From Clytia hemisphaerica (Eukaryota): a stretch of DNA of 64,000 bases. This document shows positions 3,590 through 57,895 of the stretch, piece after piece. Under the pieces are notes generated by a model, which saw only the letters and a list, made by a program, of their open reading frames with translations, had not been told where the DNA came from and did not search any database. Where the stretch lies: contig NW_027103772.1 in NCBI RefSeq assembly GCF_902728285.1, positions 185,149 through 249,148 of the forward strand. Reading direction: 5' to 3'. The first letter of the stretch is position 1. The number at the start of each line of letters is the position of its first letter. The position numbers and the translations under genes are program-made.

Positions 3590-4010
3590 GAAATTTTTTT
3601 TGTAGTGATAGTATACTGGAGATACTCCAGGGAAATCAAAATCATTTGGGTCTGGGATGCCTCTATGTCCACCATTATGGAACTAAAATCCCTGCTAATA
3701 GCCATTTTTCAGGCAAGAACCCAAATTTGGACTGAAACAATCTCTAAAATGACAATGGACATGGGCCCGAACTTTCTCGCAGTGATAGTATTCTGAAAAT
3801 ACTGCAGGAAAATCAAAGTCATCTGGGTTTGGGATTTGGGTATATCCCCAATTTTGGAATTGAAATTCCTGCTAAAACGCAATATTTCAAGCAAAAATCC
3901 TATTTTTGACTGGAAAAATTTAAAAAATGGCAATAAACATGAACCTAAAATCTTTTTGCAGTGATAGTCTTCTGGAAATACTCCAGGGAAATCAAAATCC
4001 ACTTTTTGAT
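3590..4010. repeat. Tandem array (satellite) of a roughly 190-bp unit, about 2.3 copies. A further copy continues at 5225-5420 on the other side of an inserted element.
   Basis: The motif cagtgatagt(a/c)ttctg(g/a)aaatactccagggaaatcaaa..tttgggtatatcc..ttgaaattcctgctaa recurs head-to-tail. Confidence 0.7.
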
Positions 4011-4800: not shown

Positions 4801-5789
4801 GTGTTATTTTGTCAACATTGACCAACCTTTTTCTGTTTTTATGAGCTCTTTCTTGTTGATATTTTTGGAAATTCCTGTTATATTTTTAAGAAACAAAAAT
4901 TTTATAAGTAGTGTCACCTCAGTGCAGTTTGACTCATGTACAGTATTTCAAAATGGATCAGGTTGGTTAGTGGGTGGAGAGTCAAGAGTCAAGAGTTATG
5001 ACTTTCCCTTCTCTTGAAAATCAAGTATTCCAAAACTTTGAACTAAAAAAATTGCATAAAAATAGACTTTCGTCTTTTTTTATTATCTTACAAACACTTT
5101 TTTCGAAACCACAAGTGAAAAGAAAAGCAGATAAAAATGATTGACAGGTCTAAAAAATGATTGACAGGTGCTGGTTTGCTCGCGCGGGTTAGAAATTCCC
5201 GTGAGCAATCTCGTTATTTATCAGCATGTCAAAATCCTTTGGTTCTAGCATTTGGGTATATCCGCCCTTATGGGATTGAAATTCCTGCTAACACTGGCTA
5301 AAAAGCAACATTTCGAGCAAAAACCCAATTTTTGACTAAAAACCTCTCTTCAATGGCAATAGTTTTGGACCCAAAATCTTTTAACAGTGATAGTGTTCTG
5401 TAAATACTCCAGGGGTAAAAACTATTTATGTATAAGATGCTTCTGGGAGCATAATTGCTCCGGCCTAGGAGCCTTTAATTCTCTCTTCCGACAATCGTCA
5501 AGACATTTTTTGTCTGTTTATCTAATCCGATGATCTATTCCGATTTAACAAAAACGGATCACTGATTCCGATAATACTGTGATTTGATTGGCCGAAAAGT
5601 ATTTAGAAAAAGATGGCTATCGAAAGGTCGTGGACTGGTGAGCTGTGAATACTGGCAAATCTCAGTGAAAAATTGATCATTTTCATCCTTATTCATGATG
5701 TTTTGGACATGATTTATGAGAAGTTTGATGGTGCGTTGTACGTTGTACTGCTACTGTATACTGAATTCAAATATTAAGGGAAGAAATTT

Positions 5790-6235
5790 TCGCGAGAAAA
5801 AATTTTCGCGGAATTTAATTTCGCGAATCAGAGTTTCAAAATGGCAAATTTCGCGGAATTTAATTTCGCGAATGAGCCGATTTCAAAAGTTTCACGGAAT
5901 TTAATTTCGCGATTGAGAAGTAGTTATCAACTTAGATTAACTTTTAAGCATCACGGAGTTGTTTATATTTGTTTATATTTGATAAAAAATCCACGTTATA
6001 ATGCTTAAAAATCAATTGTGTCCATCTTTTTTGGTAACACCTGGTCAAAAACAACAAAATAAAAGAAGAAGAAAAAATATCGAATTTCGCGGAATTTAAT
6101 TTCGCGATTTAACAATTTTGGTGTGTTTCGCGGAATTTATTTTCGCGAATTATGCCCCAATTCGCGAAATTAAATTCCGCGAAAATTTCTTCCGCGAACA
6201 TTTCTTCTCGCGAAAATTTCTTCCCTTAAGGTACG
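5790..6235. repeat. Palindromic satellite. The unit CGCGAAATTAAATTCCGCG (a perfect palindrome) and its extension TTCGCGGAATTTAATTTCGCGA are repeated at least 8 times.
   Basis: Many copies of ttcgcggaatttaatttcgcga occur at 5797-5930 and 6080-6200. It is absent from duplication copy 2. Confidence 0.7.
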
Positions 6236-6805
6236 TGTGTTTCTCATGATTTTATGCTGTAAAAATGATCTATTTTGGACTTTTGGTCATTTTTCATGAT
6301 GATATAATTGGTGGTTGTCCCTTTTGGATTTTCAAACTTGACAATGAAACTTTCAAACACACAGCCATTGATACACAGTATTTTTTGTGGTGTTATGTAT
6401 GGCTGAAAATGATCCTGTTTTGGACACTGTTATTGTCGTATTCATCATCGCTCGGCTGGCGACCGTTCCTTTTGATTTTTCAAACCCGACACATATCACA
6501 TAACACATATCACTATGAGAATTCAGTAGAGGATACTAAAACACAATTCCTGTGTAAATTTGAACAAGATCGGAGAAATTTTCACAGTGTTATAACTGAA
6601 AATGATATTTTTTGGACTTTGTCGTAATTTCATTGGCTGGGCGATCGTTCCTTTTGAATTTTTCAAACGCGAAACAGGTTTTTTCCAAATATAACACTAT
6701 TTATTACATACACACTATTGAACCATTTTATTTGGTTTATCCTACTCTTCTCCAAGTATTATCCCAGCAGAAAAAATAATGCTTAGCTAAAAACCCGTGG
6801 CTTAA

Positions 6806-7816
6806 TGGGATAAACTTTTGCGGGGATTAAATTTTGCTGATTTCGCGGATTTGGGTGTCATCCACGAAATTAAGTCTCAATGGAAATTTGGAAAGGCCTC
6901 ATCCGCGAAATATTTCTAAACAAAACTCAAAATTTGTCAAACAAATACTTTTTGAATGTTTACTAAAGTCTGTTCACGATAAGTGTGCACTCTTTTTTCT
7001 TTTACCTATAACTTTTGAAGGAATTCTTCAATCTTTATAAATTTGGTATTGTTGGAGAGATATTTGTGAGTGGAACAATTTGAAATAAAAAAGTCTTTAA
7101 AAAAATTCTAAAAACGAAGATGAAAATGAAGAAGAAAAAAATGAAGATCTTGTAGAAAAGTGCTATAACTTTCATTTTCACTGGAGAGAATTTTTGATCT
7201 TAGGAGGTCATCACTGTTAAAAAAATTTACTAAAATATTTATTCAATATAAAGTTATGATACAAAGTTAATAAGTGGTTGACCCCAAAAAACAGCAAAAA
7301 ACAGCAGAAAACAGCGTTTTTAGACGTCAATCAGCTTATAACTTTGCTTGATATCTTTTGACTGAATGATTATTTTTGAGAAATTTTTTCACAGTGATAA
7401 TGTTCGATAATCAAGGACTCACTTCAGTGAAAATGATAGTTATAGCACCTTTCTACAAGATCTTCCTTTTTTTCTTCTTCATTTTCATCTTCGTTTTTAG
7501 AATTTTTTTAAAGATTTTTTTATTTCAAATTGTTCCACTCACTAACATCTTTCCAATGATACCAAATTTATAAAAATTGAAGAATTCCTTCAAAAGTTAT
7601 AGGTAAATGAAAAAAGAGTGCACACTTATCGTGAATAGACTTTAGCATCAAAGAAGTGCTAATAATGTGTATTTCAACAACCAAAATGCACGATTTGACA
7701 GTTAAGTCACAAAATCGTGAAAATATTGCCACCCGCGAAATTAAGTCCCTGCAAAATTTTTAAATTTCGCGGGTAGGCCCAATCGTGAAATTAAATCCTC
7801 GCGAAAGTTTATCCCA
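6806..7816. mobile_element. TTAA-flanked foldback element of about 1 kb with roughly 350-bp inverted arms. Terminal TIR is TGGGATAAACTTT(T/C)GCGG.
   Basis: TTAA at 6802-6805 and 7817-7820. Arms at 6806-7150 and 7420-7816 are reverse complements. The element is absent from the paralogous copy at about 15245. Confidence 0.7.
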
Positions 7817-9951
7817 TTAACGAAATTTTATCCGGACAATCAAATCAACGGCGCATCATTGCTTCGCTATTAGCAAGTTTAGAAAGAAATAAATTTATAA
7901 GAACTTGGAAATATTGACTTCTAAATGTTTAGCTCCAATTTTGAACTTTTTAGTTGAGGATGAGTGGGCGGGGGATGGGCTTGGTTATTTAAGCAAGAAA
8001 GTGCATGTGTAATCACTTAGAAGAGCTAAACTTCCAGCTGGTTTATTTATTCGAACCTTTAGCCGCCGAGAGACGTACCACGTACGTCATATATACAGGC
8101 CGAGAGACGTACCACGTACGTTTTGATACTGGGGTCGTTTCAAAGTTTAATAAAATAAAGACCAGTTTGAATTTTTCTATTCTGTAAAATTTAGCAGACA
8201 GGATAGGGGTGAAGGTTCATTTTTTAAAAATTTTACGGGTCCTGCTTTTATACATCTCGAGATATCGGAACTCAATGTCGGTGTATTTTTCAAATGTCAA
8301 CAAAACGTCGTTTTAGTGGTGGACAGAGGGTGTTTGATGGATTTTTGGACTGAAAAGTCATGTTTATGTCTGGTTTTTTCTTGGTTTCAGTATATAAATA
8401 TCATTATATGAGATAGAGAACCTTTATTGGCAGTTTCTATGTGGTTTGAAGGGGTTTAAGGGGGTATTTCCTGACATACATGCCTATCTCTAGCTCCAAC
8501 AACTCAGGGCTGTTTTGCCTCAGTTTTTCGACTATTCTGGTGTTTTATTGCTTGAATTTACATGATAGAGAGTCTGTTATGATTATTGTAGTAATTTTAC
8601 AGGCTTAGGGTAAGTGCAGGGCCAATTTTAGAGCAACGGGACCACTTATTTTACCTGTTGTGGCCAGAGTGTCGATTTTGGTGGAAAAGTGTGCTTCACC
8701 GAAACTTAGATTCTGAGATGAAATGAGCTTCTTCAGCCCTGAAATTTCACACAATGGTGGCTTATAACATAAACTAAAACAAAATAATTTTTCTGGGACC
8801 AATCTTTACCTTGTACCCACTTTTTTCATTCAATTTGTCAAAAAAAAGAAAAAAAGTGAAAAAATCGTAAACATGGAATTTTTACTGTTTTGATTTGAGG
8901 CTGTGTAGTCAGGTTTAAAAGGGTGATGAGGCGTCTTTTTGGTATTATCTGAAAAAATAGATCCTTAGCTTTTCAAAATGGGTTTACTTTTTACTTAAGC
9001 TTTAGCGGTTCAGATTTTATGACATTTTCCGCGAAACCTCCATTTTCATGAAAAAAACAGCGGCAGCAGCGCGCGCTGTTTTTAAAAACAGCGGTGTCTA
9101 AAGGTTAAGATTATTTCTCATACTCGCTCTGCAATAGATTTATTGCTTTGCTTTCTGATCTGTTCTGATTAGTAGTTTGTGGGCAACGTTCGAACACAAC
9201 TAACTCAACAAGCTCATCTTTCACATCTTTTAATCTCTAAAGCCGGAGCTTCCAGCGCAGCTGGTTTATTGTTCTTTTAATAGCGTTCTAATAATAAATA
9301 AATAAAATTTTATTCGTGCTAGCAAGGACTTCATCTTATAGTCCTGTAGAATTAATTAGAATTGAATTTCTGTCCGACCCGAGTTAGTAGTTTTACCTGT
9401 AACGCCAGTCTTTTGGGCATAGAGGTTTTGGAACAACTAATTAGCAGTCCTAATTAGCAGGCCTCGCAAAAAAGTCTTTAAACCCTATCTTTCGAACTCG
9501 TTATATGCGGTTACTTTCCACGAAAGATTTTTAATAATCTCTCAGTCCATTTAAGGCTTGGTCATAGACAAACTCTTGTTTATTCAACTTATTCACATTG
9601 TTTTTCATAAAAAGCTACTCGGCTTTATGAAGCTTGATTATCAGAGCACCGTTGCCTTTAATTAAAAACAAAATATTGCTGTTTTTCATCTAACACACAA
9701 AATGTAAAGGATAAATGAAAAACATTAACCAACTAATTTGTTCATTAAACTGTCTTTAGGGACGGGCTCAGGAAACCACAAAGACACAAAATCAACCATG
9801 ATACAAAGGATAACAAGGAATGACGATTCAAAATCGAATTTTGATGTATAAATCGTCGCTGTAGAATAAAAAGGCGTTATTTCCATTTTTGCTGTCGACA
9901 TGTTTTCCCGGAATATGGCGCACCGTAGCTAGTCATATTTTTGTATCATGG

Positions 9952-10257
9952 GCCCAACCCCGGGGGGGGTACTACCCTTGTCGACCGACGGGGGTGCTCC
10001 GCTGAGGTTCGAAAAATGGACCCTACGTGGGACTCGAAATTTGCGAAAAAAGTGACCCTGAATGGGACTGAAATTCCAAAATTTTCTACTTTTTCCCCAA
10101 ATTTTCTAAAAAAAGGCACCCTACGAGGGACTGATTTTTCTATTTTGGTGTTTTTGCGACCCCACCTGGGACTCGTGGAGGTTGAAAAAGGTACCCTGAC
10201 CAGCGGAGCATCCCCGTAACCCATTTTGCCCTAGTACCCCCCCCGGGGGCCCAACAC
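9952..10257. mobile_element. hAT-like MITE with 8-bp TSD GGCCCAAC, same family as 1659-1929.
   Basis: ggcccaac flanks both ends, at 9944-9951 and 10258-10265. TIR is CCCGGGGGGGGTAC/GTACCCCCCCCGGG. Confidence 0.75.
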
Positions 10258-10619
10258 TAAGCTTTTTAATTATGTTTTTTTCTGCTTATTCTTGATATTC
10301 ATGACGTAATCTTTTATACGAAACACACGAAAAACTATTTCTGTTATTATGGAGATGAGAAAAATTTATCTCAAGAGCAAAAAAATATTGTAAAAATATA
10401 AACAAAATTTCTTAAAATTTTATGGCCTGGGGAGCCAAAAAATAAAAAATAAAAAAATTCAAAAATTGGACTCCTTTTTATTCTATAGCGACGAAATATT
10501 GTTATTATTGAAAGAGGATTGGAATCAAGTTTTAAAAGGGGTGAATGTCAAATGGTTCCAGATTGGATTGAGTCATTTCATGTAATCAGTTTAAAAAGAC
10601 AAATAATTTTTTTTCTAAA

Positions 10620-12977
10620 ATGATTTGGATGGTTTTGTGTATACTCTCCTTACTCCTTGGTAGAAATTCATCAGAAGCGGCGCACAAGATTATTGGTGTC
10701 TTTTCAAAATGTGACGGACAGACCACCAACAATACAGACTTCCAAAGACGAGCTGTGCTTTACGACCATGTTTTTAACGAAACATTCCACATTGCCAAAA
10801 TGTATTATCCGAAATTTCATGAACATGAATACAACAGTTTAGATGTTTGTGAAGATCATGAGCTTTTGGCCAACCTCACCGTTACCTTTATTCTGGACCT
10901 CGAGTTCAATACTCAATTCAATGTTTCAATTCTGGGGACGAAGAGTACAGATAGATTATATAAAACTTATCATCGTATGAAAAATCAAAACAATATTTAC
11001 TTCTTCATCAGTTTCTTAACACATAGCATGAATAAACTTTTCTTAAGGATATTATCGGCACGCCTTTGGACAGTTTTGTTAGTTTTGGACGCAAGGGAAA
11101 CGATTGGAAATCCAATGGTCACTTCGGGTCTATATCATGCATTACTAGACAATTTAGAATTTGAGTCTTTGCTTATTTCGAAAACTGTCAAAGTTTACAG
11201 ATTGAAGAGGATTGGTCTTTTACTTCTAAAAGGCTCAAAAACAGAATTCAGTGAATATTACTCACGTATGCATGAAAGAGCCATTCAAAAAATCCGTCAT
11301 GATCACCCAAACGTTTGCTATTTCACTGATTCGATTAATATCCGAAATTCAACTCAGTTAGATAAAGCAGCTGACAATCTACACCAAGAACTATCGATGA
11401 ATGCTCTGGTTTTGTTTGGCACTCCAAAAGATCAAATGTACTTCATCAAAACTGTCAATATCGGAATATACAATTTCATTTGGGTGACGCATGATTTGGA
11501 TGAATCGAAAATTTATCCAGCGTATCTCCATCTTTATCAGTACCTCATCATTAATTATAGCACAAACATGAGGACTCTAATTCTACGTAATCGTTCTAAA
11601 TTTAAACAGCGAAAACATCTTTTCCAAAAGAATTTTGTTCAAAATGGTAGTGTGGCTGAAATGGCTCATGCAGTATTCGAAACAACATTCAACCTTCTCG
11701 GAAATAACCCTAGAAGAAAGCTTGGTAATGTTTTAAGGCTACCATCGTTAACAGAAAACCATTTTTTAATGGTAAGAGGGTCAATATCTGTCGTAGAAAA
11801 AATTGTTTTTGATGAGTTCAGTAGTATAGAGAAAAGATTGTTGGAAGAATTTAGTGTCAAATTACAAACTCTTCCAGAAATATCTACGTGCGAAGCCTAT
11901 CAGTGTCAGCCAGGTTGGGAAATAAGTAGAGGAAAGCTTTTAAAACAATTCACAAAATGGAATTTCGAATATGGTTTCACTTGTAAACAATGTCAAAAAA
12001 ACTTCATTAAACAAACGGAAGGAAATGTAGAAAAGTGCCAACAATGTTCTCGCTATTACCTTTCCAACGGTAATCATACGAGATGTTATGACCCATACAA
12101 TGAACAATTTCTAGTCAAAGATACAATTCACTTTACAGCCTTTGTTTTGAGCAGCTTTGGTATTATATTTGGTATTTTTGCTTCAATAACTTTCGTGGTA
12201 TATAACGGTACCCCCATTGTCAAAAGCTCTGATTTCTTATTGACTGTGATTCACTTGTTTACTTCAATATCCATCAATATAGATTTCATAATATTACGTC
12301 ATATTAAACCAAGAGGATGGACTTGCTACTTGGACGCCATTATAGCTGGTAATTTATACACAATTTTCATGGCGATCGTTCTTATGAAGTCTCATAAAAT
12401 CTTGAAAGCTTTTAATACGATGCACAAATTATCAACAAAAAGCAAGCGAAACACTGTTCTCCAGCAATGGTTTACCATTTTTATTCTGACTGGTTCATCT
12501 TTTGTTTTGACTTTGATTGCCATGGAAACACAAAAAATAGATGTTCAATCTGAAAGAAATACTCAAACTCAAATCATATATCTTTTCTGTAGAAATATCC
12601 TCCCCAAAACCGTTCAGCTGGCATTCGCAGGTCTTTTACAGGTGGCTATTTTTATAATAGCATACAGAGGACGAAATTTGCCGGATATTTTCAATGAATC
12701 GATGTCTTTATTATACGCTTCATTTACTTCAACTGTATCCTTTGCAGTCATGTTTGTTTTGTTGAAGTTTCGCAGTCGAGATCCTTTCTTCCAAGCATCA
12801 ATAATTTGGCTTGCACTCTCATTGAACTTAAATATTTACAATTTGTTATGTTATGGGAAGAAAGTCTACATTGTTCTCTTCAAGAAGAAGAAGAATACGC
12901 GAAGTTATATTCAAAAAAAGACTTTCGAATCGAACTGTAGTGACAGCCTTACATCCACACAACAAAGTCAATTATGA
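10620..12977 (+). CDS. Class C (family 3, mGluR/CaSR-like) G protein-coupled receptor. Single-exon gene, 785 aa.
   Basis: Signal peptide MIWMVLCILSLLLG. Ectodomain of about 400 aa begins KIIGVFS (compare mGluR ILGGLFPVH). A 9-Cys block CEAYQCQPGW..FTCKQCQKNF..EKCQQCSRYY..TRCYD is NCD3G-like. Seven TM helices follow, with TM7 ...LCYGKKVYIVLFKKKK matching the class C PKxYIILF signature. Confidence 0.8.
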   Translation: MIWMVLCILSLLLGRNSSEAAHKIIGVFSKCDGQTTNNTDFQRRAVLYDHVFNETFHIAKMYYPKFHEHEYNSLDVCEDHELLANLTVTFILDLEFNTQFNVSILGTKSTDRLYKTYHRMKNQNNIYFFISFLTHSMNKLFLRILSARLWTVLLVLDARETIGNPMVTSGLYHALLDNLEFESLLISKTVKVYRLKRIGLLLLKGSKTEFSEYYSRMHERAIQKIRHDHPNVCYFTDSINIRNSTQLDKAADNLHQELSMNALVLFGTPKDQMYFIKTVNIGIYNFIWVTHDLDESKIYPAYLHLYQYLIINYSTNMRTLILRNRSKFKQRKHLFQKNFVQNGSVAEMAHAVFETTFNLLGNNPRRKLGNVLRLPSLTENHFLMVRGSISVVEKIVFDEFSSIEKRLLEEFSVKLQTLPEISTCEAYQCQPGWEISRGKLLKQFTKWNFEYGFTCKQCQKNFIKQTEGNVEKCQQCSRYYLSNGNHTRCYDPYNEQFLVKDTIHFTAFVLSSFGIIFGIFASITFVVYNGTPIVKSSDFLLTVIHLFTSISINIDFIILRHIKPRGWTCYLDAIIAGNLYTIFMAIVLMKSHKILKAFNTMHKLSTKSKRNTVLQQWFTIFILTGSSFVLTLIAMETQKIDVQSERNTQTQIIYLFCRNILPKTVQLAFAGLLQVAIFIIAYRGRNLPDIFNESMSLLYASFTSTVSFAVMFVLLKFRSRDPFFQASIIWLALSLNLNIYNLLCYGKKVYIVLFKKKKNTRSYIQKKTFESNCSDSLTSTQQSQL

Positions 12978-14149
12978 TCTTCATTATATTCAACTGTTAC
13001 ACTGTTGTTGTAAAGCGAGATTAACGGTATTTAAAATGAGGCCCGAATGGCTATAAAAAATGCTAAGCTTGCGAAAACATTCAAATTGTTAATGGAATGT
13101 CTTTCTAGAGTTACGTAATGCAGACCATCGATTTAGATCGCTTTGAAAGTGTTGAATAAGAATTCAAACGAATGGACTACATTTTTTATGTATCAAGTAA
13201 ATATATTTTGCATAACTTTTGCACATAGCTTCAATATGTATTGATTGGCTTTAAATTTCCAATTTTCAGTATATTTTAAGAACAATGCGAGAATACGTGG
13301 AAAGATATCGACCGCAATAACTTTATTTTTTTGACGGCTATGGGTTAACCCTCTCTTTCACGAATAAAAAATCGAATCGAATAAAAAATTCCTGAATTAG
13401 AAATAACGAAAACCTTGAAAAGTCAATTTTAGTCTTTATGCTTTTTTTCTCGATTTAACGGCCAATTCGTAGAATTCTGTATAGATCTCTACCCTCCTAA
13501 AGGAATTCGTTTGTAAGGCTCGTTCCTCTAAGTAGGGCTTACTTACCTTCATCTCCCTTTCATTATTGTGTATTAGAATGGCAGCATTGACAAACTATTC
13601 ATTTATAGATCTTTTTGGACTGTTACCAAAATTGGGGATACATAATGTAGATTTATTTTCTTGTTTTATTTCCAGGTTTATATTATCAATGTACTTTGGA
13701 ATGATGGCAAAAAGCAAGTTATTTGTCGACGATATAATGCCTTCTTTGAACTTCAGGTAACTTGTAATTTATTGAATCCTCACCCATTTATTCACTGGTT
13801 GTCTACGAGGGAGGGAGAAGGCCATGCATTTCATTGTTTTGTAACAAACATATTTCTTTATCGACCGCTGGAGGCGGTTTGTTTTATAGTGGTACGCTAA
13901 TCTCGTTTTGCCTTGGCTCATTACTTTGTCTACCATTTACTTTTGGTTTTTTTACCCTGGTGTTTCTCTTTTTTTTTCCCTGAATGTCTTTTATTAAGAA
14001 TTGAATAATCGAGACATGAAAAATGACTATATTGTAATCTGTTTTCAATGAATAATCTAAAATGTACTGACATGTAGGCGTTAATAATGTGCGAGCGTGA
14101 TGCGTGATGGAAGGCGGTCGTTTCAGTGTGGTTTACATCCACACTGTGA

Positions 14150-15690
14150 CCTAGTTGCTCCGGCCCAGGAGCCTTTAATTCTCTCTTCCGACAATGGTCA
14201 AGACATTTTTTTGTTTATCTAATCCGATGATCTATTCCGATTTAATAAAAACGGATTATCTGGATTCCGATAATATTGTGATTTGATCGGCCGAAAGTAT
14301 TTAGAAAAAGATGGCTGCCGAAAGTGGGCTAGCTGACTGTGTAGCGAATGGGCAAATCTCAGTAAAAAATTGATCATTTTCATCAGTATTCATGATGTTT
14401 TGGACATGATTTATGAGAAGTTTGATGCATAACTGGTTCTCTAACAATGTGGAAAGACTTTGGAGAAATTTTGGCCATGAATCGTCAGCTGATCGAGTGC
14501 TTAAATCTTGCATACAGTATGGCTAACTTCTCTTATCTAGACGCACCACAAAACCATAAAACTATGTAACTTGACAATGAAACTTTCAAACACACAGCCA
14601 TTGGAATTCAAAAGAGAATACTAAAATTACAACATTACAGTGCAAATTTGAAAACGATCTGAGTAGTATTTGTGGTGTTATGTCATATGTGTATGGCTGA
14701 AAATGATCCTGTTTTGTATTCATCATTGTTGACTGGCTGGCGACCGTTCCTTTTGATTTTTCAAACCCGACACAGATTTTTTACAAACATATCACTATGA
14801 GAATTCAATAAAGGATACTAAAACACAATTCCTGCGTAAATTTGAACAAGATTGGAGAAATTTTCACAGTGTTATAACTGAAAATGATCGTGTTTGGACT
14901 TTGTCGTAATTTCATCGCGGCTGGCGACCGTTCCTTTTGATTTTTCAAACCCGACACAGATTTTTTACAAACATATCACTATGAGAATTCAGTAAAGGAT
15001 ACTAAAACACAATTCCTGTGTAAATTTGAACAAGATCGGAGAAATTTTCACAGTGTTATAACTGAAAATGATATCTTTTGGACTTTGTCGTAATTTCATT
15101 GGCTGGGGCGACCGTTCCTTTTGAAGATTTTTCAAACCCAAAACAGGTTTTTTCCAAATACACTATTGTACCATTTTATTTGGTTTATCCTACTCTCCTC
15201 CAGGTATTATCCCAACAGAAAAAATAATGCTTAGCTAAAAGCTGTGGCCTCTAATTTAGGCTATTTTTCTCCCGAAATTTTATCCGGACAATCAAATCAA
15301 CGGCGCATCATGGCTTTTATTTGCTATTGGCAAGTTTAGAAAAAAATAAATTCATAATAACTTGGAAATATTGACTTCTAAATGTTTATCTCCTTTAGCT
15401 CCAATTTTGAACTTTTTAGTCGAGGATGAGTGGGCGGGGGTGGGGTTGGTTCTTTAGGCAAGAAAGTGCATGTGTAATCACTTAGAAGAGCTAAACTTCC
15501 AGCTGGTTTATTTATTCATCAAGATTATTTCTCATACTCGCTCTGCAATAGAATTATTACTTTGCTTTCTGATCTGTTCTGATTTAGTAGTTTGTGGGCA
15601 ACGTTCTAACACAACTAACTCAATAAACTCATCTTTCACATCTTTTGATCTCTTAAGCCGGAGCTTCCAGCGCAGCTGGTTTATTTTTAA
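14150..15690. repeat. Segmental duplication, copy 2. It contains an internal tandem duplication at about 14700-15120.
   Basis: See copy 1. The unit ...ttgtcgtaatttcat..gctggcgaccgttccttttgatttttcaaacccgacacag occurs twice in tandem here and once in copy 1. Confidence 0.75.
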
Positions 15691-15832
15691 ATTGAAGCCA
15701 GTTTTAAAATGTATATAATATTTCAAGCAAAAGTCCAATCTTTTTTTGACGGAACAAGTCTTGAGAATGGAAATGTATGTGGGCTATAAAGAATTGTTTA
15801 GTGGAATGGGATTTTTGTTATAATTTGTTTCA

Positions 15833-16349
15833 ACTACTTTAATCGTAGAAATTTTAGCGAGACTAATTTTAGCGTTTTAGCGAGTTTTCCCTATTTTTGC
15901 TAAAATTAATCTCGCTAAAACACGCCGAATCGACAGATCGCTAAAATTTATCCGCGCTAAATTTTTCAAAAACGCAATTTGCTAAAATAAATCCAGTTTT
16001 TTTTCCTTCTTTTTTTTACGATTTTTGCGAAAACTAATAAAGATATTTATTTTTGTCGGTCCCTAGAGTTCTGTAAGAAAATGTAGGCTTAAAAACACAC
16101 GCTTATCTCGAACCTCCGTTATATCTCGAACTTTCACCAAAATACATCTCAAAAAGTTATTTGGAAATGGCGATTCGCTAAAATTAATCCACGCAAAATT
16201 TTCTCAGGCAAGTATTCGCTAAAATTTATCCACGCGAAATTTTTTGAAATCGTGATTCGCTAAAATAAATCCAAAAAAAATCAAGATTTTCCTGACTCGC
16301 TAATATACGCTGAAATTACTCTCGCTAAAATTTCTACGATTAAAGTAGT
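15833..16349. mobile_element. Foldback-type MITE. TIR is CTACTTTAATCGTAGAAATTTTAGCGAG, with internal CGCTAAAAT(T/A)AATCC repeats.
   Basis: 15833-15860 is reverse-complemented at 16322-16349. The motif array is present on both arms. Confidence 0.65.
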
Positions 16350-16847
16350 ATTTCTAAATTAAAGGATTGTAAATTCATATTCTTTGTTTAATGTAACATA
16401 CAAAATAGTCAATTATGACGTATCGGATGGAAATATGTAGCGTTTTAACAGAGATTTCCTTTCCCTAATGGTGGATGTAAACAAATCCGAGACTCAAATA
16501 ATTTTGTTTTCCCAGGAGAATTCACTAACACTTCAAAGAAATTTGGGTCCATGTCTATTGTCATTTTAGAGCAGTTTTAAGTCAAAAATGGGGTTTTTGC
16601 TTGAGACGTTGCATTTTAGCCAGTTTTAGCGCATATTGAATTTTCTGACTTTGACATTTGACTTTTCCTTCCGTTTTAGCTCCCACCACACAGTAGATAT
16701 TGATAATTGAAAAATTTGGTTTTAAGCTTTCATCATCAACAATTGCCAAAATTTTAAGCCAATTTTAGGCATATCTGTTAAGTATTACTTTTAAGTGATA
16801 CTGGCAGGTGGAAAAAATCTATCCTTAAGCTTAAAAATTTATACCAC

Positions 16848-18746: not shown

Positions 18747-19148
18747 TTAATATTCTTGAGATTGAGAATTTTTGCCCTTAGCTTCTTTGGTCTTCTTGGG
18801 AAGCAAGAGAGCGTTGATGTTTGGCAAAACACCACCAGCAGCAATGGTGACTCCACTTAAAAGTTTATTCAATTCTTCGTCATTTCTGACGGCAAGTTGC
18901 AAGTGACGTGGAACAATACGACGTTTTTTGTTATCACGGGCTGCATTTCCAGCCAATTCAAGAATTTCAGCAGACAAATATTCTAAAACTGCAGCCAGAT
19001 AAACAGGTGCTCCGCTTCCAACTCGAGAGGCGTAATGTCCTTTACGTAAAAATCTGTGAATTCTTCCAACAGGAAATTGTAGGCCAGCTCTTGATGATCG
19101 CGATTTTGCTTTAGTTTTACTTTTTCCTCCTTTACCGCGTCCACTCAT
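18747..19148 (-). CDS. H2AX: Histone H2A, H2A.X-type variant. 133 aa, C-terminal SQEY.
   Basis: [40 protein letters not shown]...[32 protein letters not shown]...[19 protein letters not shown]. The ATG is at 19146-19148 on the minus strand. The listed ORF's upstream extension is not conserved histone sequence. Confidence 0.9.
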
Positions 19149-19236
19149 TTTGACTATTTTATTTTTAGCTGCGCTGAAATAGTAAATATCAAAATGCTTG
19201 AAATCAGATAAAAAAATTATGATATTTGATAACTTA

Positions 19237-19676
19237 CTCTTAGGTTCCAAATAAACGCCCCACCCTGCGTGTTAATTTTTCGAAAATTTTCCAACCCTGT
19301 CGGACCTCATTAGGACCCGCCGTTTATTAATTTTTAAGAATATTTTCAGCTGTCAAAGAGAAGGCCCCTTATTTTGCTCTAAATAACCTGATTTTAGCCT
19401 ATATCTACCTTATTTTGGGTTTTCAAAAGTACAATTTCCAACCCAAGGCAATTATGCCCCCTTGTTTACTAAAATCTTGAAAGATCAACCCACCCCCCCC
19501 CCCCCCAGTTGTATTGAAGTTTTTACAAGATGCTCACATAATTGGTTATTCAAAACAATGAGATGACGCGTTCTTTAGAAAAATTTTTGTTTGAATAGTT
19601 AACGACCAATCCCATGACAAAAATTCTTGTAAATGTTCAACTTGACCTGTCCCCCTGATTATCTGGAACCTAAGAG
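19237..19676. mobile_element. Stowaway-like MITE with TA TSD and TIR CTCTTAGGTTCCA. It lies about 90 bp upstream of the H2A.X start codon.
   Basis: TA at 19235-19236 and 19677-19678. Inverted termini ctcttaggttcc / ggaacctaagag. The internal sequence is related to 688-967. Confidence 0.65.
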
Positions 19677-23059: not shown

Positions 23060-24830
23060 AAGATTTTCAGATCTCTCTCAGATTATAAAAATCTTTGAGA
23101 AAGTCTTCAGAAAACACATCAATGTCAAACACATGGACGAAAATAACTTTTTCAACCCAAATCAGCATGGCTTTAGAAGTGGAAGATCTTGTCTGAGTCA
23201 GCTCCTTGAACAACATGATCTTATATTAAACTTACTTGACAAAGAGACCAATGTAGATGTTGTTTACTTAGACTTTTCTAAAGCTTTCGATAAAGTGGAT
23301 CATTCAATTGTTCTGTCGAAATTCAAAAGGCTAGGAATAACTGGTAAAATCTATAACTGGATAGAGTCCTTTTTGAGAGACAGGCAACAAACTGTAGTGG
23401 TTAATGGTGTGAAATCAAACAACCAAGAAGTTATCTCAGGTGTACCACAAGGAAGTGTACTTGGACCCCTGATTTTCCTGATACTCATTGGAGACATAGA
23501 TGAGAATGTTATCCAATCTATCGTCAAGTCCTTTGCAGATGACACTCGCACAACCAAGTCAATAAAGAATGCTGAAGATATAAAAATATTGCAACAAGAC
23601 CTTCAGATTTTATATCAATGGACAATCGCAAACAATATGAAATTGAATGATGCAAAATTTGAATTGCTACGTTATGGCTCAAATACAGAAATCAAAAATG
23701 AATCTCACTATACCTCACCATCAGGAGATAAAATTGAAGGAAAGGAATATGTTAAAGACCTGGGAGTTCTTATGTCCAATGATTGTCTATTTAAACATCA
23801 AATTGAATCAATAATTGAAAAAGCCAAAAACATCATTTCTTGGATATTACGTACCTTCACTTCCCGCTCTACACATACCATGATCACTCTCTATAAATCA
23901 CTTGTGATCCCTATACTGGAATATTGCTCAGCGTTATGGAGCCCCAGTACTATTAGTCTTATTCAAAGACTTGAAGAGATCCAGAAATCATTCTTGAAAC
24001 AAATAAAAGGAACACACAATTATTGGGAAAGTCTAAAGAAGCTTAGAATATACTCACTTCAAAGAAGGAGAGAACGCTACAGGATCATATACCGGGTGAC
24101 CCACGAAAAAGTTCGGACGTTTCTCGACGTCTTGAAGCCAAACAAATGTCCCAAAGTGTTTGGAGTTTTACTATTTAGAAAGTAGATATCCTAACTTAAA
24201 ATTTGAGCTATCATTTTTTTAATTTGATCCACAAGTCCCCTAGTTATGAGCTTTTAAACTCAATATTCACTTTTCGGAAAGTGTAAAAAACACGTAAAAA
24301 AGGGGTATCAAATTAGGTATGTTTAGACATTTTTGATATACAGTTTTTGAGAAAATTCTTTGAAAGTGACAATTTTTATTAAAACTAGTCTTGTTTTAAA
24401 CAAAAATTACTTTCAAAGGTGGTTTTGATAATTGTTAATTTCATAAAACTTGTTAACTAAGTCAATTTGTAAGTAATTTTCTAATTGATTGCGAAAATTT
24501 AATACCTGTTTTTACGTGTTTTTCACACTTTCCAAAAAGTGAGTTTTGATTTTAAAAGCTCATAAGTAGAGAACTAGTTGGTCAAACTTAAAAAGTGATA
24601 GCTCAAATTTTAAGTTAGTATATCTACTTTCTAAATACCAAAACTCCAAGCACTTTGGGACATTTGTTCAGCCTCAAGACGTCGAGAAACGTCCGAACTT
24701 TTTCGTGGGTCACCCGGTACACCTGGAAAATATTGGAAAATCTTGTGCCAAATATCAATGATTGCTTCAAATCTAAAGACCATCAGTGTAGACCTAAAGC
24801 TCTAAACCAGCATCTAATAACATGAAAACC
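23060..24830 (+). mobile_element. 5'-truncated CR1/L2-like LINE ORF2 (RT domain). It is interrupted by a TA-flanked foldback element at 24096-24719.
   Basis: ORF 23133-24185 carries HGFRSGRSC, YLDFSKAFDKV, GVPQGSVLGPLIF and FADDT (RT motifs 1-5). After the insert is removed the frame continues as ...RIIY | TWKILENLVPNINDCFKSKDHQ...*. Confidence 0.75.
24096..24719. mobile_element. Foldback TIR element of about 625 bp with arms of roughly 215 and 240 bp at about 90% identity. TA TSD, TIR CCGGGTGACCCACGAAAAAGTTCGGACG.
   Basis: 24096-24300 is the reverse complement of 24480-24719. ta lies on both flanks (cata-TA-ccggg ... cccgg-TA-cacc). Confidence 0.6.
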
Positions 24831-55429: not shown

Positions 55430-56370
55430 ATGACAAATCCGACCGGACGCTTACCTGGTGATCGACGCATCTTCACCTACTTACAGAACGCGTACGCGCG
55501 AAAAACACATTGGCTGACACCACTACCATGGAAACCAAACTTTAAATTCTTATTTGACCAATCTTATATGAAAGATATCAAATTTAAACATGCTGTGCAG
55601 TACGATTCGCTTTCCAAAGAAGGAGAAACCTTGAACGCAGGCAATAATTTTACGTACAGTTTACTAAACATGTTATCTCAGCTGGATCTAAGGCTAGCTA
55701 CAATAGAAGGGAACCTGGGCTCAGGTAAAACTAGCCTGATTTATAGATTCTTAAAAGACTGGGTTCGAGTTTCAACAAAACTGAAAAATAGCGGGAAAGT
55801 TTTCTTGCATTGTGATCTAACCAATATTGATGTAGAAAACATGAAGCCGAAACTGGATTTGAATTCCGTTATGGATTTATTCGGATTACCGGGTTACCTT
55901 TATGATGATTTTATGTGGCTAATCGAGAAAAATAGCGATAAAATTATTGTATTAATCGAGACACACAACATAAGGGCATCATCGAGACTTGTTTTCAAAC
56001 TTTTCTATAAAGTATTCCCAACCGGGAAATTCGTTATATTTCACAGACCAGATAAGACAAACTCATACTTAGACGTACCGATCTCACAGGAATATCGTTA
56101 TCTATTACGGCGCCGAGTAAAGTTGAAAATTCAAAACTACGACATCCGACAGACTGTGAATTTAGTAAAGCAGATTTCATCGAATTCTATAATGTTCCAA
56201 AACTTTCGTGACGCTTTATACGAATACTTGTCTTTATCTAGACTGTGTTCCAATCCCTTTATATTGATGGTTGTTCTAAATATTTATAAAGAAACAAAGA
56301 GTATCAAGTTTCTGGAAAACAGGCTATCGCTACTTCGGAAGATCCTTACAGCTGTGTGGCGACGATATGC
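55430..56370 (+). CDS. NACHT/STAND P-loop NTPase (NLR-like) gene, first coding exon. Holds Walker A GNLGSGKTSL and a candidate Walker B IIVLIETHN.
   Basis: ORF 55430-56374. ...ATIEGNLGSGKTSLIYRFL... with NACHT-like downstream blocks (...LCSNPFILMVVLNIYK...). gtaagt donor at 56371. A possible acceptor tttcag lies at 55400 just upstream of the ATG. Confidence 0.65.
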
Positions 56371-56794
56371 GTAAGTTGCTTATATTGGTTGACCAGCAAT
56401 AGCTCCTCTATTGAGGAGGAATAAGAATCGACAAAAATATTCAATCGTAAAGGCTTGGGGAAACGAGATTTGTTTTTCGCGTTGATACAATGCAACTTGC
56501 TCCATCCCACCAACCTGAAACACTTTCTCGTGTCTCCGACCCATTTTTCTTTCTACCAATAAAAGTGAAGTCTCACTTTTGTCCTATGAAACAAAAATGA
56601 AACCATGAGACACACACTTTTTTCTTGTCTTGGTGGGATGGAGCATGTTGCATTGCACCAACGCAAAAAACTTCTCGTGTCCCCAAGCCTTAACCCCACA
56701 AAATCATGACAAAAATATATTCTTGGCACACCCGGCAGAGCATAATATTACAGATTAGTATAGACCCGCTTTTTATCTTTGTTTTGATTTTCAG

Positions 56795-57350
56795 GAATAC
56801 AACAGATCAATACGATGCTGACATCATCCAACATATCGATAGCTTGCTCATCTCTTTCTCCGATGTTGCCATAGAGACATATACAACAAACTGTCACTTA
56901 TCTGAGGATGTTATTTCTGAAAATGAACATTCTATTCTTTTACTGGATTCCGGTCTGTTAATTGAACACCGGCTACCAACGAAAAATACAGACTCAATTG
57001 AACGCGTATACACATTTTTTGATCCGCTGTTACACGAGTACACGTGCGCTTTAAAGTATTCGAGGCAAATTACAGAACAGCCTGATACCATAGAGGAGAT
57101 TGGGAATACATTATTTTCACCTGAATGGAAAGATGTGTGTCTACTAGTAGCTGGTCTATTAGGGAAACATTTTAGTATTCTGATTAAAGAGATAAATTTT
57201 GATTATATGGAGGATTCAGCACTCCATATTTTATCAGATGCTTTGAATCAATGTCAATGTCCGAGACTTTGTTTAAGAGATGTTGATCATATTCCTGTAC
57301 CTCAATCTATCGATTTTTCAGAGATGCCAATAACGGCTTCCACACTTAAA
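56795..57350 (+). CDS. NLR-like gene, second coding exon (NACHT C-terminal / winged-helix region). It is in phase with exon 1 (gc|g = Ala).
   Basis: ttttcag acceptor at 56794. ...EHSILLLDSGLLIEHRLP...VYTFFDPLLHEYTCALKY corresponds to the NACHT F-x-H-x-S-x-QEFLAA motif. Candidate gtaagtgctttaa donors at 57351 and again at 57498; exon end uncertain. Confidence 0.55.
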
Positions 57351-57895
57351 GGTAAGTGCTTTAACCCTTTGCGTTCCATGCCAAAAATACTGATGCCTAG
57401 ATTTATCGTCACCTCTCTCCGTGCCAAAAATACTGATAACGAGGTAACTCACAATTACGTGGTGTTCCAAGTATACCGCGGGTTTCAAAAAACTTTCGTA
57501 AGTGCTTTAATATTAGAAGCATCGCAGCGGTTTACGGAAAATTAGCGGCGCTAGAATTGGAAGCAGCCTTACATCTGTAAAAACCTCCACCACTGCTTAT
57601 TCCGGCCACCAAAGCTAACATCTGTTTTAAAATTTATCCCTCCTCCTAAACTATTCCCTTTGTAGTGACCTTGTGTAGACGATAGGATTATCTAAATACT
57701 ATCAGAAAGTTTTGTAATTTTTCAATTGACTTACCTTTGCTTGGAAAATTGTTATTTAAAATTTCATCTTCCTAGGGTTTTTTCAGTTTTTTACGACATT
57801 AAATCTAGCTGCTGTCCAGTGAAATATAAGACCCCTAAGCTAGAGATGAAAAACGTTTACTCATAACATTTTCATTCAATTTTACAACAATATAG

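Follow-up and report, generated by a model that had tools for sequence, protein, structure and literature searches.

A single-exon class C receptor gene between two same-orientation copies of a probable HINE/DINE-1-like non-autonomous element

Results

Receptor gene and its domains

The window, i.e., the whole 64-kb stretch of DNA analyzed here, carries a 785-aa open reading frame (ORF), the sole ORF of at least 150 aa within 18 kb. The coding sequence and its predicted parts lie at the following positions.

10620-12977, + strand: class C GPCR coding sequence, single exon, 785 aa (ORF, ATG to stop)
10620-10682 (residues 1-21), + strand: hydrophobic N-terminal leader
10683-11879 (residues 22-420), + strand: divergent Venus-flytrap-like ectodomain (profile, Foldseek)
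11889-12086 (residues 424-489), + strand: cysteine-rich linker (family alignment)
12117-12881 (residues 500-754), + strand: 7TM domain (Pfam, AF2 model)

A previous sequence-only reading had described a complete, signal-peptide-bearing class C GPCR encoded by one exon at this place. The ORF agreed exactly, the hydrophobic leader was present at the N-terminus, and Pfam 7tm_3 (PF00003) matched residues 500-742 well above its cutoff (E=2.1e-23; 83.7 bits vs a cutoff of 33.5). The Pfam comparison bore out the class C assignment in this part of the protein, whereas ANF_receptor and NCD3G, also expected under that reading, did not match the 785-aa receptor at E<=1.

Analysis with a profile of the receptor family against the PDB showed a match to CaSR (E=6e-54), and the CaSR-aligned region keeps the motifs R-x-LP-x-x-FNE and K-V-Y-I-x-L-F...NT. 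The profile also aligned to mGluR7/8/4 over profile positions 171-748 (from flytrap residue ~170-200 on), a span that runs from the middle of the flytrap domain through the Cys-rich and 7TM domains. The AF2 model of the receptor had a pLDDT of 79.6, with seven helices in residues 502-754. Foldseek with this model gave full-length matches to class C receptors only (best E 4e-25), and the ectodomain modelled alone matched only the ligand-binding domains of CaSR, mGlu and T1R (E=3e-10, probability 1.00). Over the full length, profile and fold matches thus went to CaSR, mGluR and TAS1R. Because the TM-scores were low (0.28-0.38 over the two models, ~0.3 for the ectodomain) and Pfam ANF_receptor and NCD3G were silent, the flytrap assignment leans on local 3Di and profile similarity. 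Within the linker, C424, C429, C455, C458, C473, C476 and C489 are invariant in the family alignment, and residues 424-489 were modelled by AF2 as short beta hairpins; a paralogue in L002 gave a weak Ephrin_rec_like match.

Comparison with the closest homologue, P0001 (64% identity over the full length), yielded a dN/dS of 0.22 at a dS of ~1.1, with values of 0.23 for the ectodomain and 0.18 for the CRD plus 7TM, and the receptor gene is under purifying selection. As far as its sequence can tell, the gene encodes an intact and functional class C GPCR with a very divergent ectodomain, whose role may be chemosensory or ligand-sensing.

Receptor family

Homologues of the receptor fell into 1379 representative clusters at E<=1e-3, 96 of them at E<=1e-30, and approximately 29 of the top 150 clusters aligned through the ectodomain. 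Nearly all homologues consist of one full-length ORF (700-850 aa) on a metagenome contig. Some of the contigs clearly represent genomic DNA: L002, taken from a contig of 366 kb, carries two convergent single-ORF receptor genes, and L004 (10 kb) carries two in tandem. Named relatives came solely from Clytia hemisphaerica, the best named matches being 45-61% identical; XP_066936165.1, designated 'metabotropic glutamate receptor 8-like', showed 45% identity over 640 residues. A profile search in a word-indexed database returned only P0001 and P0002 and was of no help for taxonomy, and a literature search on intronless class C expansions in cnidarians gave nothing specific.

The cysteine pattern, length and single-ORF form of the receptor are found again in XP_066936165.1 and in the metagenome-derived homologues P0001-P0034, some of which lie in tandem or inverted pairs. 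Unlike these paired homologues, the receptor is present as one copy in the 64-kb window, in which tblastn detected no second GPCR copy or relic. Its flanks shared no repeat with the contig of the closest homologue (L001), nor with L002, L004 or L005.

Repeat copies on either side of the receptor gene

BLASTN of the window against itself revealed four collinear same-strand segment pairs, which define two copies of a repeat (copy A and copy B) around the receptor gene.

5452-9270, + strand: copy A, HINE/Helentron-like non-autonomous repeat, ~1.1 kb of element sequence plus three nested TIR elements (BLASTN, termini)
14152-15685, + strand: copy B, the same HINE/Helentron-like repeat, compact, without nested insertions (BLASTN, nhmmer, termini)
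14604-15158, + strand: central tandem repeats of copy B (TRF, BLASTN)
5452-5730 with 14152-14427, same strand: segment pair 1 (BLASTN)
6335-6792 with 14568-15240, same strand: segment pair 2 (BLASTN)
7821-8052 with 15273-15517, same strand: segment pair 3 (BLASTN)
9107-9273 with 15521-15688, same strand: segment pair 4 (BLASTN)

The segments had E-values between 1e-70 and 1e-131. Over gap-free columns, identity was 90.6% overall (989 matches, 103 mismatches), a value that leaves out the three TIR/MITE insertions of copy A and the tandem-repeat expansion of copy B, and 85.6-95.7% per segment. These results are in accord with the sequence-only reading, which had placed two collinear direct blocks, diverged by about 5-15%, around the gene; their limits were refined to the positions given above. 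The alignable sequence amounts to ~1.1 kb, with a longest identical run of 79 nt. Copy A lies 1.35 kb upstream and copy B 1.17 kb downstream of the receptor gene, with a spacing of 4.9 kb between the copies, and no further copy was detected in the 64-kb window, nhmmer included. A tandem duplication of block plus gene was rejected, as tblastn showed no decayed receptor copy after copy B or before copy A.

That the two blocks differ by transposon insertions and an internal tandem duplication, as had also been proposed, was likewise confirmed: copy A contains three TIR insertions and copy B 184-bp repeats. The central unit of ~184-197 bp is present about once in copy A and, in copy B, in ~3 copies by BLAST (14604-14971 vs 14801-15158, BLASTN within the copy) or 2.3 copies by TRF (14735-15158, period 184, 92% matches). 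A 120-aa ORF in the central repeat had no matches in a protein-database search, an uninformative result. The nested and neighboring elements are as follows; no strand is assigned to them.

5774-6229: nested MITE, TTAA-bounded, 52-nt terminal inverted repeats, in copy A and absent from copy B (inverted repeat I2; junction comparison)
6802-7820: TIR element bounded by TTAA, nested in copy A and absent from copy B, internal hairpin arms of 330 nt (inverted repeats I5, I1; junction comparison)
8053-9106: nested 1054-bp insertion with short TIRs AACCTTTAG / CTAAAGGTT (junction comparison, copies A vs B)
9848-10499: TIR element with 30-nt arms and a G/C-rich TIR repeat nested inside (inverted repeat I8; BLASTN)
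15833-16349: MITE (TIRs of 43 nt) that lies outside the repeat pair, 150 bp downstream of copy B (inverted repeat I3)

A 3'-end-like motif, CCAGCTGGTTTATT, is internal to both copies (at 8034 and 15499); in copy A the insertion at 8053-9106 sits exactly after it, and copy B has only 'ATC' there. This second motif suggests that the element is composite, made up of a long unit plus a tail of 170 bp. The G/C-rich TIR repeat (9964-10240) has another copy at 1663-1918 (81%, BLASTN), and the TIR element that contains it stops 120 nt upstream of the receptor ATG. The surroundings of the receptor gene are TE-rich intergenic DNA.

Termini of the repeat and a third copy

The 5' terminus of the repeat reads TAATT-GCTCCGGCCTAGGAGC and the 3' terminus GCCGGAGC-TT-CCAGCGCAGCTGG-TTTATT, i.e., the blocks begin with TARTTGC... 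(start TTGCTCCGGCC) and end with ...GGTTTATT (stop GCTGGTTTATT). The homology between copies A and B breaks off abruptly at both ends of both copies, with no similarity between the flanks. The termini are T-rich (TT... and ...TTTATT) and were recognized after the fact. No target-site duplication flanks copy A or copy B.

An exact 29-mer of the 3' end led to a third copy on the JGI metagenome contig Ga0314693_10092807 (L003). The first 107 nt of this contig share 97% identity with copy A and 93% with copy B, and the three-way 3'-end alignment showed that the homology stops at the same nucleotide (...GCTGGTTTATT) and is followed by unrelated sequence. This copy covers the last 107 nt of the element only and bears on the 3' terminus, not the 5' terminus. 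Scanning of prokaryotic and viral contig collections with the exact 3'-terminus pattern gave nothing, as expected.

Both copies A and B possess a subterminal inverted repeat, formed by GCTCCGGC (nt 6-13) and GCCGGAGC at a distance of 21 nt from the 3' end; 8 nt are perfect (12/15 when extended), a result obtained in 2.1% of random placements. The last 25 nt include a hairpin with a 5-bp stem, CCAGC-GCA-GCTGG, at 6 nt from the 3' end, and the subterminal repeat and the 3' hairpin occurred jointly in 0.3% of random placements in the window. A further small hairpin adjoins the subterminal repeat at the 5' end. The hairpins are the predicted MFE structures in both copies, but they are energetically weak (z -1.3 to -2.0; 3' hairpin -1.7 to -2.0).

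Because tRNA and Rfam scans returned no match, the element has neither a SINE-type tRNA head nor a known RNA. A canonical Helitron was rejected, since its 5' TC and 3' CTRR ends and its insertion between A and T are absent from the element. The 64-kb window contained no ORF of Rep/Hel size, and no autonomous Rep/helicase partner was seen.

Discussion

The findings described above point to a single-exon class C receptor gene that lies in TE-rich DNA between two same-orientation copies of one non-autonomous HINE/DINE-1-like element, and we consider this arrangement the likely one. The element copies would have landed, or hopped locally, on either side of the receptor gene in the same orientation, and the two insertions may have been independent. 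After insertion, copy A would have gained its three MITE/TIR insertions, and the central repeat of copy B would have expanded. Several observations count against this reading: the two same-orientation copies are 4.9 kb apart with none in the other 50 kb, as a local process would likewise give; the known copies number three, the third bearing on the 3' terminus alone; the subterminal repeat is short, the hairpins are weak, and the termini were recognized after the fact; and no autonomous partner was seen.

According to the sequence-only reading, the blocks are a local direct segmental or tandem duplication around the receptor gene and now serve as a substrate for non-allelic recombination that could delete or duplicate the gene. 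Such an origin would account for two collinear, same-strand blocks that are the only copies in 64 kb and have one gene between them, and homologous genes elsewhere do duplicate locally (L002, L004). We nevertheless consider it unlikely, as the homology ends abruptly at structured, transposon-type termini in both copies without flank similarity, the L003 copy, on an unrelated contig and with a different flank, breaks off at the identical base, and there is no second receptor gene copy or relic. That reading had itself named a dispersed high-copy repeat as the alternative to a local duplication; a copy elsewhere was indeed found, in line with that alternative, although the three copies seen in all do not show the repeat to be high-copy. 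The potential for recombination is low whatever the origin, so that the proposed set-up for unequal crossover is weak: ~1.1 kb is alignable at 90.6% identity, perfect tracts do not exceed 79 nt, and three insertions of 0.5-1 kb break up copy A.

The two copies could also be regarded as a pair of long terminal repeats belonging to a single old element, LTR-type or composite, that encloses the receptor gene and arose by a single insertion, with L003 as the solo or 3' repeat of another copy. Two direct repeats of ~1.5 kb around a 4.9-kb internal region, a divergence of 9% that fits an old LTR pair, and a third copy whose downstream flank differs, as expected for a solo LTR, are consistent with this view. 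It is made very improbable by ends that are not TG...CA, by the lack of a 4-6 bp duplication shared by the sequences to the left of copy A and to the right of copy B, and by the DNA between the blocks, which contains neither a gag/pol/RT ORF nor a primer-binding-site-like sequence; the subterminal inverted repeat and 3' hairpin of the blocks are also atypical of LTRs.

Vertebrate class C receptor genes are multi-exonic. Against this background the single coding exon might mark the receptor gene as a processed retrocopy made recently from an intron-containing parent, with the flanking repeats being incidental, and a non-LTR reverse transcriptase fragment is present in the window. However, neither a poly(A) tract nor a flanking duplication was found around 10620-12977, homologues at 22-65% identity in other organisms likewise occupy single ORFs on genomic contigs, and the gene is under purifying selection with a dS of ~1.1 to its nearest relative; we therefore give a recent retrocopy very little credence. 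Because the single-ORF form is common to homologues of such low identity, intronlessness is old and a trait of the whole receptor family. With intronless homologues and purifying selection at this dS, any retroposition would be ancient and ancestral to the family. Of the suggestion that the gene is 'retro-copied or lineage-expanded', the second half stands: the receptor is one of a divergent, lineage-expanded family, and the others too are single ORFs in genomic contigs. A recent retrocopy is not supported, the poly(A) relic and target-site duplication being absent.

There is only the slightest chance that copies A and B and the DNA between them form one composite rolling-circle unit carrying the receptor gene as transposon cargo, in which replication would run from copy A, beginning at its 5' end, to the 3' end of copy B; if this were true, rolling-circle transduction would be one route for the spread and expansion of the intronless class C receptor family.

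Two modest points deserve attention. The gene points to a family of single-exon class C receptors that is sizeable but poorly annotated and whose ligand-binding domains are very divergent; it is known mostly from unnamed environmental eukaryotic contigs and from Clytia. Its members are candidates for chemosensory or neurotransmitter receptors of cnidarians, and a gene with one exon is easy to clone and de-orphanize. Furthermore, direct repeats on either side of a gene can prove to be two transposon copies instead of a segmental duplication, which matters when copy-number-prone loci are flagged. Neither point is surprising to a specialist, and the arrangement is an ordinary one.

Comparison with known systems

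Like CaSR, mGlu4/7/8 and TAS1R, the receptor has a 7TM domain (7tm_3), preceded in order by a leader, a probable bilobed alpha/beta ectodomain and a putative Cys-rich linker. It differs from them in being shorter (785 aa), in having one coding exon, and in an ectodomain beyond the reach of Pfam ANF_receptor and NCD3G; their amino-acid-binding residues could not be aligned to it. The NCD3G domain has nine cysteines, compared with the seven that are invariant in the linkers of the receptor family.

The repeat looks like a non-autonomous HINE/DINE-1-like Helentron, known from three copies, and would have moved by a rolling-circle mechanism. It differs from HINEs in several respects. Its subterminal inverted repeat has 8 perfect nt (12/15) vs the 11-15 bp reported for the subTIR of HINEs, its stems are only 5 bp, and its flanking modules are longer (~450 bp each). 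In mite HINEs, the 3' subTIR and palindrome are farther from the 3' end than the 21 and 6 nt of the element, and the second internal 3'-end-like motif (8034, 15499) is not a feature of HINEs. The element nevertheless matches the HINE layout described in PMC4067079 and, for Cg_HINE of Crassostrea gigas, in PMC7492417. Features in common with HINE/DINE-1-like elements are a subterminal inverted repeat that lies 2-5 nt from the 5' end and is adjoined by a short complementary IR, tandem repeats in the center whose copy number varies, a 3' subTIR with a palindrome after it, and T-rich termini. Like them, the element has no coding capacity, lies close to genes and appears to lack a TSD.

Flanking blocks and their termini

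BLASTN of the window against itself gave four collinear same-strand segment pairs (5452-9273 versus 14152-15688), and together with repeat analysis bore out the sequence-only reading's description of direct blocks with TE insertions and an internal tandem duplication. The blocks differ in size because copy A contains three TIR insertions and copy B an expanded tandem repeat (unit ~184 bp). The second insertion also holds a near-perfect hairpin (6963-7645; arms 330 nt, 86% complementary, loop 23 nt).

5452-9270 (+), copy A, upstream flanking block
5774-6229, TTAA-bounded TIR insertion in copy A
6802-7820, TTAA-bounded TIR insertion in copy A
8053-9106, insertion with terminal inverted repeats in copy A
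10620-12977 (+), class C GPCR gene
14152-15685 (+), copy B, downstream flanking block

With gaps left out, the segments of the two copies were 85.6-95.7% identical (90.6% overall; 989 matches, 103 mismatches), and the longest identical run was 79 nt. The homology started and stopped abruptly, with unrelated flanks beyond. The 5' end reads TA(R)TT-GCTCCGGCC(Y)AGGAGC and the 3' end GCCGGAGC-TT-CCAGCGCAGCTGG-TTTATT. The two arms of an inverted repeat (8 nt perfect, 12/15) are set 5 nt in from the 5' limit of the homology and 21 nt in from its 3' limit. A small hairpin adjoins the 5' repeat and a second one, with a 5-bp stem, lies 6 nt from the 3' end; both are energetically modest (z -1.3 to -2.0). 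When an interval of the same size was placed at random 30,000 times within the window, such an inverted repeat occurred in 2.1% of cases, a hairpin in 16%, and both in 0.3%. Each copy also contains a single internal instance of a related motif, CCAGCTGGTTTATT (8034 in copy A, 15499 in copy B); this suggests a putative long unit followed by a ~170-bp tail carrying a second 3' end.

The decisive evidence was a third copy, recovered on contig Ga0314693_10092807 (L003) by searching JGI metagenome contigs for a 29-nt exact match to the block 3' end. The first 107 nt of this contig matched copy A at 97% and copy B at 93% identity, and homology stopped at the same ...GCTGGTTTATT, followed by unrelated sequence. 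The opposite strand of this contig (330-827, -) encodes a 165-aa coiled-coil ORF with a C-terminal hydrophobic anchor, tail-anchored-like. A short A-run closes the contig, which may be transcript-derived; if so, the 3' part of the element would be transcribed there.

The three copies thus have three different 3' flanks and one common end point, which argues for a mobile element; we consider it likely, with good confidence, that the blocks are a transposable element. The segmental duplication proposed earlier would account for two collinear blocks in direct orientation, but not for this pattern of flanks and ends; it is unlikely, as the copies share their termini and another one elsewhere has the same end and a different flank. 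That copies A and B form an LTR-like pair enclosing the receptor gene is very improbable, since the ends are not TG..CA and neither a TSD nor retroelement ORFs are present.

Proposed history and recombination potential

With a transposable-element origin, the likeliest history runs thus. The receptor gene would have stood within TE-rich intergenic DNA, and two elements would have inserted in the same orientation, one 1.35 kb upstream of it and the other 1.17 kb downstream, either independently or by local hopping. The copies would then have diverged by ~9%; copy A would have gained its three MITE/TIR insertions and the central repeat of copy B would have expanded.

In principle, recombination between any two direct repeats can delete or duplicate the intervening DNA. 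On sequence grounds, however, this pair is a poor recombination substrate, because the alignable sequence is only ~1.1 kb long, 90.6% identical, fragmented in copy A and without identical tracts longer than 79 nt; the earlier view of a locus prone to unequal crossover and copy-number change is therefore not upheld.

Receptor gene

The receptor ORF encodes 785 aa without interruption. Pfam returned 7tm_3 as the sole match (residues 500-742, E=2.1e-23); the ANF_receptor and NCD3G domains also expected by the sequence-only reading gave no match even at E<=1. In a 16-sequence family alignment, seven cysteines in residues 424-489 were invariant and the 7TM core was conserved. The alignment profile matched CaSR (E=6e-54) and also mGluR7/8/4, the mGluR matches extending from mid-flytrap domain through the end of TM7. 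In the AlphaFold2 model (pLDDT 79.6), beta and alpha segments alternate through the ectodomain, the Cys-rich part forms short beta hairpins, and there are seven helices; Foldseek aligned the model over its full length with the folds of the class C receptors CaSR, mGlu and TAS1R (E down to 4e-25). These matches agree with the earlier call of a complete class C receptor. When the ectodomain was modelled separately, Foldseek matched class C ligand-binding domains only (E=3e-10); because the TM-scores were low (~0.3), its predicted identity as a flytrap domain is graded likely, not demonstrated.

An exhaustive phmmer search among 1.84 billion cluster representatives detected 1379 relatives with E<=1e-3, of which 96 reached E<=1e-30; within the 150 best matches, ~29 aligned across the ectodomain with 22-45% identity. 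The closest protein, P0001 from a 3.3-kb ENA metagenome contig, showed a full-length identity of 64%. Against it, dN/dS was estimated at 0.22 (ectodomain 0.23; dS ~1.1), which indicates purifying selection on the gene; it is not a decaying copy. Only one species, the hydrozoan Clytia hemisphaerica, supplied named relatives: a protein annotated as 'metabotropic glutamate receptor 8-like' (XP_066936165.1; identity 45%) and a EukProt transcript (61% identity across 185 residues). These hits suggest a hydrozoan, or at any rate cnidarian, origin of the DNA. Homologues of 700-850 aa were continuous ORFs on ENA, JGI and Logan contigs, some of which could be transcripts. Three contigs were plainly genomic.

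L002, from a 366-kb contig of another organism: 10001-12358 (+) and 13481-15925 (-), two genes in convergent orientation (785 and 814 aa)
L004, 10-kb contig: a tandem pair of genes (697 and 769 aa)
L005, genomic contig: a single receptor-family gene

The L002 genes were 98.5% identical over 1052 nt in the 7TM-encoding half and only ~90% across a 407-nt stretch close to the 5' end, a pattern that points to inverted duplication in the recent past or to gene conversion, confined to the 7TM half. On the evidence of these genomic contigs, single-exon structure and local duplication are family traits across deep divergence, as the proposed intronless, lineage-expanded family implied. The same reading had also offered a retro-copy. 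As a recent event this would explain the lack of introns, and it is highly doubtful: intronlessness is family-wide, and neither a poly(A) relic nor a flanking duplication was found around the gene. Also very improbable is a composite rolling-circle unit of copy A, gene and copy B, with the receptor as cargo.

A TIR element (9848-10499) ends 120 nt upstream of the receptor ATG, so the promoter, within or beside this element, may be TE-derived. The element encloses a G/C-rich palindromic-ended repeat (~9950-10256) with another copy at 1663-1918.

Surroundings

The window is AT-rich (GC 32-39%) and clearly eukaryotic. Besides many MITE-like repeats it contains a histone H2A gene without introns and a fragment of a non-LTR reverse transcriptase.

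3596-3999, short tandem array of repeat 'X' (~180 nt)
5229-5414 (+), single 'X' unit, 38 nt upstream of copy A
16430-16630 (-), single 'X' unit in the opposite orientation, ~750 nt downstream of copy B (~230 nt without an intervening MITE)
18747-19250 (-), H2A gene (Pfam Histone and Histone_H2A_C)
23133-24185 (+), 350-aa ORF, RVT_1 E=6e-26, non-LTR retrotransposon fragment
55430-56374 and 56706-57545 (+), neighbouring ORFs (314 and 279 aa)

The H2A C-terminus (...SQSQEY) is an SQ(E/D)-hydrophobic tail of the kind that typifies H2A.X, and the true start is probably an internal ATG (MSGRGKGGK...). The 314-aa ORF has a Walker-A-like GNLGSGKTS; neither it nor the 279-aa ORF matched Pfam, and the two may be parts of a single NACHT/NLR-like NTPase gene, interrupted by an intron or a frameshift. 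Further young dispersed repeats, in pairs with 95% identity (4185-4484/41476-41774; 25649-25872/34984-35207 (-)), show recent transposon activity in this genome.

Comparison with known elements

By analogy, the flanking blocks may be a non-autonomous Helentron of the HINE/DINE-1-like type. We hold this class to probable, at about an even chance, because the subTIR is short and the 3'-end spacing is tighter than in mite HINE elements. The anatomy otherwise fits the published description (PMC4067079; PMC7492417): a 5' subTIR with an adjacent IR, central tandem repeats, a 3' subTIR followed by a palindrome, and T-rich ends, with neither TSD nor coding capacity.
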